DNA of 61,476 bases, counting the filler, from Chloroflexota bacterium (GTDB lineage Bacteria; Chloroflexota; Chloroflexia; QHBQ01): assembly GCA_043754535.1 (NCBI GenBank). It is 4 parts of 4 records of this genome, joined end to end, with 100 filler letters (N's around TTAATTAATTAA, not from the genome) between each part and the next. Parts side by side here need not be neighbours in the genome. Positions count along the whole stretch, not along the records: positions 1 to 15,743 come from JAYUUN010000034.1; 3 more parts are not named here. One strand, 5' to 3'. This document shows, one piece after another, positions 1-3,000 of the stretch. How positions within the stretch are numbered: position 1 is the stretch's first letter; the number at the start of each line of letters is the position of its first letter. Position numbers: made by a program.

Positions 1-3000
1 AGCACGTCGCCGTAGCGTTTGCCGACCGTGCGCGACGAGCCGCTGACTGCCCGCACCGCAAACCAGGGGTGGCCGCGCAGCAGACGCACGATGCGTGAAC
101 CTACCAACCCGGTCGCTCCTAGAACGCCGACCCCAATCCGATCCATGGTCTTGCTCCTTCCTGGGCGATGCTCTCCCCCTGCGGTGCGACGCGGGCTGCG
201 TCGGCGAAGTAGCCTGCATTGTCCAGGCAATGTACCTTGTGCAGCAGGCGCATCGCCTCCGCCGACTGTTGGCCCTCGACCAGGTAGGTGAGCCGCAGCG
301 GCGAACCCTCGACGGGGATCGCCTCAATCCCCTGGCGGCGCAGGCTGGCGCGGGAGATCACATCCACCCGCTGCGACTCGCCCACGCCCAGGCCGACGAG
401 AGAGATGCGATCTTCCTCGCTGCCCACCCCGTCCTGCGGGTTGTACTTGAGACGGGCGACCCCCCGCACTAGCGTGTCGCGCTGCGGTTCGCTACTCTCT
501 GGCACCGCCACTGCTGCTTGCACATGAGCAACCAGGGTGCCGGGGTGGTTATTGAAGCTGGAGCGCACTAGGATAGGCAGGTTGTATTGCAGACCAACCC
601 GCACAGCACGGGGGTGCAACACGCTAGCTCCGTGGGCCGCCAACTCCAACATCTCGGCGTAGCTGATCCGCCCGATGCGGTCGGCCCGATGGACGATGCG
701 CGGGTCTGCGGTATACACGCCATCTACGTCGGTGTAGATTTCGCACCAGTCGGCGTGCAGGGCAGCCGCCAGGGCGACGGCGGTGGTGTCGCTCCCCCCT
801 CGGCCCAGGGTGTTGATCTCGCCCGGCTGACCAACGGCGCAGCCCTGGAAGCCTGCCACGATGGGGATGAAGCCGTGTTCGATATCGCGCAGAACCTGCC
901 GCTCGTCAATCGCTGCGATCTCTGCATTGCCATAGTTGCCGTCGGTGTGGATACCTGCCTGGGGGCCGGTCAGGGCGCGGGCAGGCAGGTCGAGGTGCTG
1001 CATCGCCAGGCTGAGCAGCGCGCAGGAGACGATCTCGCCGGTGGAGAGCAACAAGTCTATCTCGCGCCGTGCCTGTTCAAGCGTGCCATTCAACTGGCCC
1101 GCCAACTCAAGCAACTCGTCGGTAGTGTCGCCCATCGCCGAGACAACGACGGCGACCTGATGCCCCGCCTGCACCGTAGCTGCCACCCGCAGCGCGACGG
1201 CGCGGATGCGGCCCACGTTCGCCACCGAGCTACCGCCATATTTCTGAACGATTAGTGCCATCGCTTACCCCTCCTGGTTAAAAAAAGCCCCGTCCCTATC
1301 AATTGAGGGACGAGGCTGTAATAGCATCGTGTTTTCCACCCTGACTCGTAGCCGCCTTGCAGCAGCTAGCCTCAGCAGGTCAGTCCCGTAGCCCTGGCCC
1401 TGGTGGGAGCAGAGCATTGCGGGTTGTGACCCAGGCCCAGATAACGAAGGCCGATCCGTCCACCTTTACTGGGCAGCCGATCCTTGCCGTCGCGCCGACG
1501 CGACCAGATAGCGATGCCGTTCAGAGTAGCCGCTCCGAGGTGGTATTTCGTTCGCCCTAACTACCGCCCTTGCACTATCGGCGGCTCGCTGCCAGTCTAG
1601 CGAAACGTACTCGTCCTCATCTGCGCGTTTAGAGGTTTGTGCTGGAAAGCTATCCCCTAAACAAAAAACCGCTCTCTGGTTAGGAGGCGGCTAGCGTTCA
1701 GGTATAGCAAAGGTACCTGGCAGTTACTCGCTTCCCTTATCTTACCCCTTGCGGGGTCGGAATTGGCACCTGGACTCCAGGCGGCACTGCCTGGGTCTGG
1801 TTGTCGGGTTTCATCGGGCCGGTTCCCTCCACCCTCTTGATAAGAGCGCAACTTCATATTAACTTGCGCGCATTATAGCACAGGCGGTAGCCCCTTGTCA
1901 AGGACAGTTTAGCAGCTACCTGTTCAAGGCGATTGCGCTCGCAAGCTAGCTGCACCCGGTACCGCACTGGCTGCCGCCCCTACCACTCCTTCGTTGCCGA
2001 AGCTGTCCACTGGCACAACGGCGAAGTAGTAGCTGTTGCCGTTGAGCAGCGGTTGCGGTGACTTGCCACTATGCCAGGCTAGCAACTTGACCCGCGTTTG
2101 CTGGGCCACTGCGTCTAGCTCGACTACTGGGGAGAGGCTGGCAGTGTTGGTGATCTGCTGCTGGCTGGCGTAGATGCGGTAGGCCACTGTACTCGGCGCG
2201 GGGCGATAGGTGTGCCAGTCAAGCTGGATCGTGCCACTGATAGCCGCGTCGCTAGCGAGGGGCGAGACCGGTGGCTGGGCCGCCAGCCTGCGCTCGACCC
2301 TGATCAGCAACGGTTCACCAACGCTTAGTTGCTGACCCACCTCTGGTAGCAGCAGGCCCACCCGCAGGCTAGCGATCTGGCGCAAGTCAACGTGCCGCTC
2401 CAGCCGCGTCGTCGCCTCTTTCAGCGGCAAGACTAGCTGGGTGGCGCGGCCTTGCAGCAAGGTAGCCTGCCAGTTGTAGGAGGTGCCGCCCGCCTCGGCA
2501 ATGTTGACGCGCACCTGCGCCTGCTGCCCACTGCTGCGCGGGTCTGTGACCGTCAGCAGCAGGTAGTCGTAGCCAGACCAGTCGGTAATCGCAGCGGTGC
2601 GCTGGACGAAGGCCCAGGAGTAGCCCGCCACACTGCCAGTTGCGCCGCTGAATTGCAGGGTGCCGCTGACCATTACGCTGGCGGGTGGATCGGCCTGCCA
2701 GATACCAGTGACCGCTGAGGAGCCTGTTGTCTGGCGCAAGTAGAAAGGTTGTGGCACACTGTAGGCTTCTTCGTCACTGCGTTGGTCGTCCTTGCCGACC
2801 GCCCGTACCCGCCAGTAGCCGCGCCCACCCTCGTAATTAGAAAGAGGCAGGCTAGCGAGTTGGCTAGCAGTGGTGGTGATTGCTACAGGCTGGGCGAAGT
2901 CTGGGGTCTGCGCGACTTGCACGACGTAGCGACTTGCGCCCGCCAGCGGCTGCCAGGCGGCAGGGTGGGGTGCATCGCGCCGCAAGTCTGCGCTGAACAA

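Follow-up and report, generated by a model that had tools for sequence, protein, structure and literature searches.

The window, i.e. the whole stretch of DNA that was analysed (61,476 nucleotides, filler included), comes from a Chloroflexota bacterium (genome G000) and carries, all on the minus strand, two RNA switches in one leader followed by genes of the aspartate pathway. In the direction of transcription, the locus consists of a sigma70-type promoter TTGACA-18-TATAAT (1872..1901; 12/12 matches), a SAM-I (S-box) aptamer (1734..1846) and its expression platform (1659..1733), a T-box (1303-1632; Rfam RF00230), a class II-type aspartokinase gene, ask (119..1261; 380 aa), which encodes the only aspartokinase found in the genome, and the 5' end of asd (1..146), which overlaps the end of ask. 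The asd gene continues on contig C56, where metY, a tauE-like gene, metX and hom are also located. A preliminary description had placed an operon asd-metY-tauE-metX-hom behind the kinase and had reported a 98-nt overlap between the ends of contigs C34 and C56; the gene order was borne out across the two contigs and the overlap is exactly 98 nt. The name tauE, matched only below the cut-off, is that of the description. The label lysC given to the kinase is a misnomer, because dapA was not found in any of the five genomes of the family. The promoter is the sole promoter-like site in 1200-2000 (one, versus 0.1 in shuffles), and both of its hexamers are unchanged in the second genome of the genus (G001). 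The two complete switches share one leader, with a single promoter upstream of SAM-I and no ORF or promoter separating them: one frame of at least 50 codons was found between the switches or in the leader (1857-1657) and it overlaps the SAM-I aptamer. A promoter scan of the operon gave no internal promoter above chance.

The SAM-I aptamer (1846-1734) was recovered as described: it scores 64.1 bits, above the gathering cut-off of 44.4 (RF00162), is full length (positions 1-108) and is identical in G001. Each switch had been credited with its own terminator. That of the T-box (1280..1317) is strong, with 12 bp followed by a U run (-22.7 kcal/mol, z -5.3, 0/200 shuffles), but that of SAM-I (hairpin 1692-1667 and U run) folds weakly (-11.2 to -11.9 kcal/mol, z -1.5 to -2.1) and escaped the scan for terminators. 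SAM terminators elsewhere are stronger (-16.5, -17.8 and -19.0 kcal/mol in G002, G004 and G020, respectively). The 3' end of P1, together with the bases that follow it, is able to pair with the 5' arm of the SAM-I terminator and constitutes a candidate antiterminator (duplex -11.3).

The T-box scores 63.2 bits (E 2e-12), under the Rfam cut-off of 93, as had been cautioned; seven of the eight T-boxes detected in the genome likewise fall below this cut-off, including those before valS, pheS, glyS and thrS. Its stem I (1530..1626) is complete in motifs, namely a K-turn, an AGUA/GAA loop E, an AG bulge, an apical T-loop and a specifier loop with a purine after the specifier. The G of the loop-E GAA is absent in G000 and kept in G001 and in four of four metagenome runs, and G001 lacks one G of the GAG that follows stem I. 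Stem II (with an insertion) and the stem IIA/B region with its CGUUA box (1436..1529, approximate bounds from the covariance-model alignment) are present, as is stem III (1349..1368), which folds and has flanking purines (3' flank AG where the motif has AA); all three paired-site changes of stem III in G001 preserve pairing. The antiterminator (1306..1342; -8.9 kcal/mol, versus -9.0 to -11.7 in sister leaders) overlaps the terminator, which makes the two mutually exclusive. Its bulge (1338-1331) had been reported to depart from the 7-nt consensus UGGNACC in both genus members, and does so: it reads UGGAAAAC, i.e. 8 nt, with the 5' UGGN intact and without the conserved 3' ACC, which stabilises the discriminator domain (PMC7583486, PMC11404447). 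Among 82 T-boxes, an 8-nt bulge was found in G000 and G001 only. It may weaken tRNA sensing.

The specifier of this T-box reads ACC (Thr, 1544-1542) followed by A (1541), within 1541..1544, and overlaps a UAC (Tyr) one base upstream. This ACC-A is common to G000 and G001 and sits in the standard 8-nt frame in both alleles, the frame preferred by the TBDB rule (PMC7778990). The specifier loop of G001 is GGAAUACCACC and not GAAAUACCACC, as claimed earlier, and four independent runs have an extra G in it (GGAAAUACCACC); the thrB leader of the genus has ACC-A in a 9-nt loop, as does the four-run allele. The UGGA of the antiterminator can pair with U73-CCA of a tRNA. Indeed, (i) tRNA-Thr(CGU) and tRNA-Thr(UGU) carry U73 and the three CAU tRNAs carry A73, (ii) the thrS T-box likewise combines ACC and UGGA, all as noted before, and (iii) tRNA-Thr(GGU), correctly reported as absent from G000, was found with U73 in G001, G002 and G003 (3/5). 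The T-boxes with UGGAACC (17 of 82) are all Thr-type or Gly; the automatic specifier census mis-parsed some rows, and its use was limited to bulges and to rows that were inspected by eye. A specifier loop reading UAC (Tyr), or Tyr and Thr together, is highly improbable. In the four-run allele, UAC stands one base after GAA, with a C next to it on the 3' side, an arrangement shared with the T-boxes presumed to read Tyr in the sister genus, and discriminator mismatches do occur in this genus, where both members combine UGGC in the Ile T-box with an A73 tRNA, so that the discriminator rule is not absolute. However, tRNA-Tyr has A73, the other frames (UAC, CCA) need A73 tRNAs that UGGA does not match, ACC occupies the standard frame in the G000 and G001 alleles, and Tyr has no metabolic link to the operon. 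With ACC, a UGGA matching the host U73 and the related genes ask, asd and hom downstream, the sequence thus has the features expected of a T-box(Thr), and the earlier reading as threonine in this genus is supported by the ACC-A specifier, the UGGA partner and the U73 of tRNA-Thr, together with a probable change from an A73-type T-box, most likely Met.

SAM-I and the T-box are adjacent in 5/5 family genomes, as stated earlier, and the tandem could be linked to the kinase in four of these; the G003 tandem lies on another contig than the kinase gene. Outside the family, leaders with SAM alone had been reported, which is true for eight of nine loci, but G020 has SAM and a T-box, so that the tandem also occurs beyond the family; a tenth outgroup locus (G040) has neither switch. 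The SAM-only leaders of G006, G014 and G010 still show a remnant of the T-box terminator (0, 0 and 1 of 300 shuffles). A kinase-led scan of metagenomes gave 80 distant loci; in the 68 with 300+ nt upstream, a crude regex detected no SAM-I motif, and its T-box-like strings were all loose. In a kinase-led scan of genomes (80 loci), only L274 had the tandem among the 17 scanned (Chloroflexota titles); it repeats the G001 leader and is not counted. A weak scan, which also missed the genus's own thrB T-box, gave no T-box upstream of five outgroup AK-thrBC loci.

The features of a T-box specific for tRNA-Met (AUG, UGGU) are present or likely in G002-G004 and G020; the G000/G001 loop is without AUG and the partner is UGGA. 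The sister-genus T-box had been described as a Met T-box (AUG, A73 partner): its UGGU does match A73, but the overlap of AUG with UGC leaves Met likely rather than clean. A T-box that read UGC (Cys), or AUG and UGC, in the ancestor or the sister genus, and hence a change from Cys or Met/Cys to Thr, is unlikely and would be compatible with a working Thr sensor. UGC is invariant in 5/5 family members and AUG occurs in 4/5 (GUG in G010); UGC shares the frame of ACC-A and has a purine after it, and the Met T-box of S. aureus has AUG followed by G (PMC7913692). Cystathionine beta-synthase is present in 5/5 family genomes and no cysE was over the cut-off in 40 order genomes, which suggests that Cys derives from homocysteine. 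A two-codon T-box has been described (Saad 2013, as cited in PMC4052509). However, the UGGU in 5/5 matches A73 (Met) and not the U73 of tRNA-Cys, AUG one base after GAA is the commonest offset in these genomes, and a codon followed by C is also found in Ile and Asp T-boxes here.

Regarding the proposed Met-to-Thr switch, the change from an A73-type (most likely Met) to a Thr T-box is supported, and its occurrence in place is favoured. In a tree built after masking of the specifier and bulge columns, this T-box falls with the sister ask T-boxes (83/84, not starred). Leaving G001 aside, these T-boxes also score highest in local alignments of stem I, of stem II and of the 3' domain. Replacement of, or gene conversion in, this T-box by a Thr T-box from elsewhere in the genome is unlikely: the best tree places it with the sister ask T-boxes, a clade with the thrS T-boxes is rejected (p-AU 0.011), and identity to the sister ask T-boxes is higher than to the Thr paralogues both in apical stem I (47-51% versus 35-36%) and in stem II (61-64% versus 47-59%). 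On the other side, a clade with the Thr T-boxes preceding a small peptide has a log-likelihood only 0.94 lower (p-AU 0.36), the diagnostic sites versus this small-peptide family are 11 Met-like and 8 Thr-like (three of the eight in the specifier and bulge), and T-box copying between genes has been described (PMC2494555). The small-peptide T-box of the sister genus was also considered as a relic of lost thrBC and was discarded, since G006 has the T-box/peptide pair plus thrBC.

The switch counts as one event, because G000 and G001 are 98% identical in AK, and the correlation between specifier and gene content rests on three lineages. Its direction could also be reversed, with Thr as the family's original reading and a move to Met in the sister genus after loss of thrBC. 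This is improbable: G020 has AUG/UGGU at the same position between SAM-I and ask, the close relative before hom in G010 also has UGGU, and the terminator relics point to an older tandem. Nonetheless, thrB is over the cut-off in 22/41 relatives and is thus probably ancestral, and the link between the family and outgroup T-boxes (p-AU 0.50) is a branch without support.

The gene content supports the Thr reading. Indeed, thrB and an operon-type thrC are present in 2/2 genomes of the genus versus 0/3 of the sister genus; the sister genomes are 83-84% complete and also carry another ThrC-family protein, and PF01212 hits, present in 5/5 genomes, are uninformative on alternative threonine synthesis there. 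All five family genomes encode one AK and one Hom. G020, with its SAM and AUG/UGGU T-box, has a second AK directly before thrB, i.e. a separate Thr-branch kinase. The best solved relative of the ask product is the class II aspartokinase of Corynebacterium glutamicum (PDB 3aaw; E 1e-74), with which the catalytic domain aligns over 1-255; in comparison, the protein lacks about 64 residues located after the catalytic domain and before the last ACT module. This gap covers the first ACT domain, no Pfam ACT hit was obtained, and ACT1 is deleted in 4/4 full-length family kinases aligned. The genus combines thrBC with a sole aspartokinase without ACT1. However, such a gene set can do without a Thr T-box: in G017 and G030, one AK and thrBC occur with SAM alone.

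Taken as a whole, the locus is best explained, with fair but not high confidence, by a two-input SAM/tRNA-Thr leader, most likely through in-place descent. The tandem anatomy and the Thr reading of the logic gate first described were borne out, and we infer its function as follows. A single transcript would start near 1865 and meet two terminators in series. High SAM would lead SAM-I to stop the transcript, and the T-box would let it pass only if uncharged tRNA-Thr(GGU) paired with ACC (stem I) and UGGA (antiterminator), so that the two read-throughs would multiply to give the output (NOT SAM AND threonine shortage). Homoserine has two outlets in the genus, Met/SAM/Cys and Thr/Ile, and the sole aspartokinase found has lost one of its ACT domains; the leader would most likely be a graded, leaky sensor of homoserine supply that replaces threonine feedback on the enzyme. 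It would most likely descend in place from an older SAM and A73-type (Met) T-box leader, by four changes in five specifier-loop bases and a U to A change at the discriminator partner. A broader scenario, put forward tentatively and with somewhat less than even confidence, is a two-branch gate: the family would have lost the Thr-branch aspartokinase and an ACT domain of the other one, and the genus that kept thrBC would have retuned the T-box to tRNA-Thr and weakened the SAM terminator, so that one leader may sense both homoserine products and replace allosteric feedback through an 8-nt bulge outside the accepted consensus. The serial logic is a point against such a gate, as threonine excess would shut the sole metX, and SAM excess the sole copies of ask, asd and hom.

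This difficulty with metX would be sidestepped if the T-box were a weakened or dying sensor, once Thr or a chance look-alike, which acts as a near-constant leaky terminator while SAM regulates. The non-canonical bulge (2/82 T-boxes), the loss of a base from a conserved motif in each of G000 and G001 and the loss of the T-box leaving a bare terminator in at least three outgroup leaders are in line with such decay, which is nevertheless quite unlikely. Indeed, only 15/330 sites of the T-box differ from G001 (4.5%; 2.0-7.3% in eight other T-box pairs) versus 197/1259 fourfold sites (15.6%; Fisher p 1e-8), and stem I alone differs at 6/99 sites (p 0.008). No variant is listed at the specifier or the bulge in 4/4 independent metagenome runs, and a compensatory G-C to A-U change affects stem I pair 1582/1566 in run X7, whereas another change in that run, at 1568, disrupts a loop-closing pair. 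Moreover, the other two Thr T-boxes of the genus score even lower (41.5 bits; undetected) yet precede thrS and thrBC. Unconstrained folding of stem I was no better than shuffles (z +0.7), as expected for a motif-rich stem.

The sister-genus SAM/Met form is already known, as are tandem architecture and T-box respecification taken separately; no description of a SAM/T-box(Thr) tandem was found in the literature searches. SAM-I/T-box(Met) tandems before metX and metY were published in 2022 (PMC9481103; seven in Table 2, plus two in reverse order), and the sister-genus and G020 leaders resemble these. The present leader shares with them the two classes, their order, the separate terminators, the predicted logic and the downstream metX/metY, but its T-box would read Thr, its inputs would report different branches, and ask, asd and hom are also covered; 'threonine', 'aspartate', 'lysC' and 'Chloroflex' do not occur in the main text of that paper. 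Tandem riboswitches at the homoserine branch are likewise known in Bacillota, where hom is controlled by T-box/T-box, SAM/SAM and cobalamin/SAM/SAM (Morales and Merino 2025, PMC12452182); neither the main text nor supplement file 2 of that paper gave a SAM-then-T-box row, and its two 'T-box SAM' rows precede sulfate-assimilation operons. A change of amino acid through the specifier has been described for T-boxes, e.g. from Tyr to Phe (Wels et al. 2008, PMC2494555, which cites Grundy's tyrS specificity experiments). Here, by contrast, the shift affects the specifier and the discriminator partner jointly, at an orthologous position within a tandem and alongside a change in pathway content.

The case is a single event in a small uncultured genus of Chloroflexia. 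If it works as read, the locus would offer a natural before-and-after pair for the rewiring of an RNA logic gate, and a SAM-I/T-box tandem with inputs from two branches of one pathway. One locus would thus exist in Met, Thr and T-box-deleted states, matched to the enzymes kept in each lineage, and could bear on the need for the 3' ACC of the T-box bulge and on RNA control replacing a lost allosteric domain.

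The preliminary description had placed a SAM-I riboswitch and a T-box in tandem ahead of the aspartokinase operon, and this observation is confirmed with small corrections. Indeed, cmscan of the window from 1 to 6000 gave two matches only, both on the minus strand: a SAM-I riboswitch (1846-1734; 64.1 bits, cut-off 44.4) and a full-length T-box (1632-1303; 63.2 bits, E 2e-12, cut-off 93), the latter below the Rfam cut as had been stated. A promoter-like TTGACA-18-TATAAT sequence (12/12 matches; 1901-1872, minus strand) lies upstream of both, and a promoter scan found no such site in the interval between them. 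Each switch had been credited with its own terminator; that of the T-box is strong (-22.7 kcal/mol, equalled by 0/200 shuffles), whereas the SAM hairpin folds but is weak (-11.2 to -11.9 kcal/mol; 9-11 of 200 shuffles fold equally well), with energies of -16.5, -17.8 and -19.0 in the relatives G002, G004 and G020. The antiterminator fold of the T-box (-8.9) is comparable to that of relatives (-9.0 to -11.7). Aspartokinase is the first gene behind the leader, followed by asd, metY, a TauE-like membrane protein (match below cut-off), metX and hom; C34 and C56 share the 98-nt overlap previously reported, and the whole operon stands on a single contig in the other genus member, G001. Record titles among the best matches give the lineage as Chloroflexota, class Chloroflexia. 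A promoter search inside the operon gave nothing above chance. In the metX-hom spacer (G000:C56 ~37615-37674, L012), a TACAAT hexamer without a good -35 precedes hom and is conserved in G001, where the spacer holds a short tandem repeat; the promoter scan gave no call at this hexamer. Upstream of the leader lie an 838-aa secreted protein, glycoside hydrolase-like by reading and without a Pfam match (1924-4440, minus strand), and a PMT_2 (GT-C) membrane glycosyltransferase (4544-6703, plus strand). The window joins several pieces, with N runs at 15744-15843, 31273-31372 and 46467-46566, and C34 covers 1-15743 only.

The specifier loop of this genome, G000 (GAAAUACCACC; G001 has GGAAUACCACC), ends in AAAU-ACC-A at its 3' side, directly before the basal helix, and the TBDB rule, as given in the accessible part of its source (PMC7778990), yields ACC (Thr) as preferred frame. 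The alternative frames UAC and CCA would require A73 tRNAs, and the bulge start UGGA fits U73. As had been claimed, both tRNA-Thr genes of G000 (CGU and UGU) carry U73, and tRNA-Met, like tRNA-Tyr and tRNA-Pro, carries A73, so that the UAC (Tyr) register misfits the discriminator. The tRNA-Thr(GGU) gene was again not found in G000, nor in G004; it is present, with U73, in G001, G002 and G003. A set of 82 T-boxes was assembled (8 from G000, all 40 matches in G001-G004, 32 of the 86 matches in five outgroup genomes, plus two thrB leaders recognised by eye), and each of its 17 UGGAACC bulges belongs to a Thr-type or Gly T-box. In the contigs of the four metagenome runs examined among 17 listed (four studies), one extra G brings the loop back to 9 nt, its length in the sister genus; ACC-A abuts the helix in G000, G001 and all four run alleles. 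The discriminator rule has exceptions in the genus, since the Ile T-box of G000 and G001 has a UGGC bulge against A73 of tRNA-Ile. This Ile T-box (G000:C5:56057-56303, L001; G001:C131, L042) is separated from ileS by two cupin-like ORFs.

That the T-box is a weakened sensor is unlikely, although several features point that way. Its bulge departs from UGGNACC in both genus members, as had been noted: an 8-nt UGGAAAAC occurs in 2 of the 82 T-boxes (G000, G001), against a consensus of 7 nt whose 3' ACC steadies the discriminator domain, according to the accessible parts of PMC7583486 and PMC11404447; one of these, a review, notes that UGGN could shift its position inside a randomised bulge in vitro. 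Moreover, the loop-E GAA lacks its G in G000, and the GAG 3' of stem I is short of one G in G001. The T-box is nevertheless under constraint: the two genomes differ at 15/330 of its sites (4.5%) versus 197/1259 fourfold sites of six operon genes (15.6%; Fisher p 1e-8), and at 6/99 sites of stem I alone (p 0.008), the 4.5% lying inside the 2.0-7.3% range of the other eight T-box pairs. In run X7, a pair of changes at 1582/1566 converts G-C to A-U and another change disrupts a loop-closing pair; three runs share a change giving a U-G wobble, and no variant was listed at the specifier or bulge in the four runs examined. The low score says little, since the genus's other Thr T-boxes fare worse: that of thrS scores 41.5 bits, and that of thrBC is undetected by cmscan. 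The latter, a degenerate Thr T-box before thrB-thrC (G000:C90 ~37400-37680, plus strand, L104, L254; same in G001, L103), has ACC-A in a 9-nt loop, UGGAACC and a terminator, and was missed by cmscan at E values as high as 1.

SAM-I adjoins a T-box in all five family genomes, as claimed, and the connection to aspartokinase is seen in four. The reported paired change also stands: the sister genus (G002-G004) has the loop GAAAAUGCG with the bulge UGGU, against ACC with UGGA in G000 and G001. SAM alone had been reported for other families, which holds for 8 of the 9 outgroup leaders of the order but not for G020, whose leader carries SAM and a T-box (44 bits; AUG-C, UGGU). All eight SAM-only leaders contain an additional hairpin and U run. 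In three of them (G006, G014, G010) a hairpin matching the terminator of the G020 T-box is retained (0, 0 and 1 of 300 shuffles); these three are bare T-box terminator relics without sensor, between the SAM-I terminator and the aspartokinase start (L015, L020, L025). Given these relics and the G020 leader, the tandem probably predates the family, its T-box sensor having been lost repeatedly. A close kin of the G020 T-box, without SAM-I (L256, G010:C3:6383-6655; loop GAAGUGCG, bulge UGGUAUC), stands in G010 before two hom genes and a sulfurtransferase-like gene.

In a tree built with the specifier and bulge masked, the T-box of G000 and G001 joins the sister-genus aspartokinase T-boxes (support 83/84, not starred). 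The AU test rejected its grouping with the thrS T-boxes (p 0.011) and allowed clades with the second Thr T-box family (p 0.36) and of all Met-type members (p 0.50). These comparisons favour an in-place change from an A73-type ancestor to a Thr T-box. Whether that ancestor read Met is contested by a live rival, a Cys or dual Met/Cys reading: AUG and UGC overlap in Met-type loops and UGC is the invariant triplet (5/5), cystathionine beta-synthase is present in 5/5 family genomes, and cysE was not found over the cut-off in 40 order genomes. Thr-type T-boxes also precede an acidic peptide of 61-77 aa that contains cysteines and carries a DW motif at its C-terminus (two families) at L056 (G002:C26), L054 (G003:C295), L060 (G004:C231) and L268 (G006:C8); tblastn of G000 gave no match to the peptide, and in G003 the tRNA-Thr(GGU) gene follows immediately downstream.

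Searches of the five family genomes gave a single aspartokinase and a single homoserine dehydrogenase each, and no dapA, so the kinase supplies homoserine rather than lysine. G000 and G001 encode thrB and an operon-type thrC, neither of which was found in G002-G004 (83-84% complete); these carry a different ThrC-family protein, present in G000 too. Of the nine genomes outside the family with the SAM-led kinase, seven encode another kinase, of class I; in five of them, G020 included, it lies directly before thrB. Thus the AUG form occurs where there is no thrBC or where the Thr branch has its own kinase, and the ACC form where thrBC goes with one kinase, across three lineages (order-wide tallies take in the unpublished genomes G007, G012, G015 and G034, and no claim depends on these alone). 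Genomes with these genes can nevertheless do without a Thr T-box, since G017 and G030 have one kinase, thrBC and SAM alone. The family kinase is short of ~64 residues spanning the first ACT domain (4/4 full-length aligned), which the G006, G017 and G020 kinases retain, and a Pfam search of the G000 kinase gave no ACT match. Effector sites reside in ACT domains, according to the accessible part of PMC4142519, and feedback may have been lost in the family kinase.

The interpretation as a SAM/tRNA-Thr gate made by a specificity switch is partly supported: sequence favours the Thr reading and the in-place change, and the gate is a prediction. SAM binding would release terminator 1; without SAM, bases at the P1 end would engage the 5' arm of this terminator instead (duplex -11.3), and uncharged tRNA-Thr would next stabilise the antiterminator, for a predicted output of NOT SAM AND Thr shortage. 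Strict logic is awkward: abundant Thr would close the only metX, and abundant SAM the only ask/asd/hom, in an operon where the promoter search found no internal site above chance. A graded, leaky gate, maximal when homoserine itself is scarce, is likely, and the weak SAM terminator fits it. On balance, a working SAM/Thr gate is rather probable.

Sherlock et al. 2022 (PMC9481103) describe the same working logic, NOT A AND B, for SAM-I/T box(Met) leaders of metX and metY, but the G000 leader is not a member of this Met form. That paper has seven SAM-I/T box(Met) in Table 2, as well as two with the order reversed, and its main text does not mention threonine. The accessible part of Morales and Merino 2025 (PMC12452182) gives T-box/T-box and SAM/SAM before hom and limits 'T-box SAM' entries to two sulfate operons; a sub-threshold T-box could have escaped this survey, because it relied on Rfam scores. 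T-box copying and a Tyr-to-Phe change are described in the part available of Wels et al. 2008 (PMC2494555), and in the RegPrecise table, as far as accessible (PMC3766115, supplement 2), the Thr T-boxes of the five Chloroflexi all stand before thrS operons, with a Met T-box in none of the five. No published SAM/T-box(Thr) tandem was found in the literature searched; subscription papers or the PMC9481103 supplement may contain one. The Thr-reading tandem is one evolutionary event, and it is cheap to test.

A conserved CUC (Leu-type) T-box (G000:C105:31423-31671, L004; relatives L061, L062, L063, L064) stands not before leuS or leu genes but before short proteins, some with Cys-x2-Cys pairs. SAM-I riboswitches number three in the genus versus one in the sister genus. 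A second SAM-I of G000 (C29 ~35500-38825, minus strand, L010) stands ahead of genes for a sulfhydrylase-like protein, a JAB-like protease and a ThiS/MoeB-like fusion, all named by reading their sequences; the set resembles a pathway that makes homocysteine by way of a sulfur carrier.
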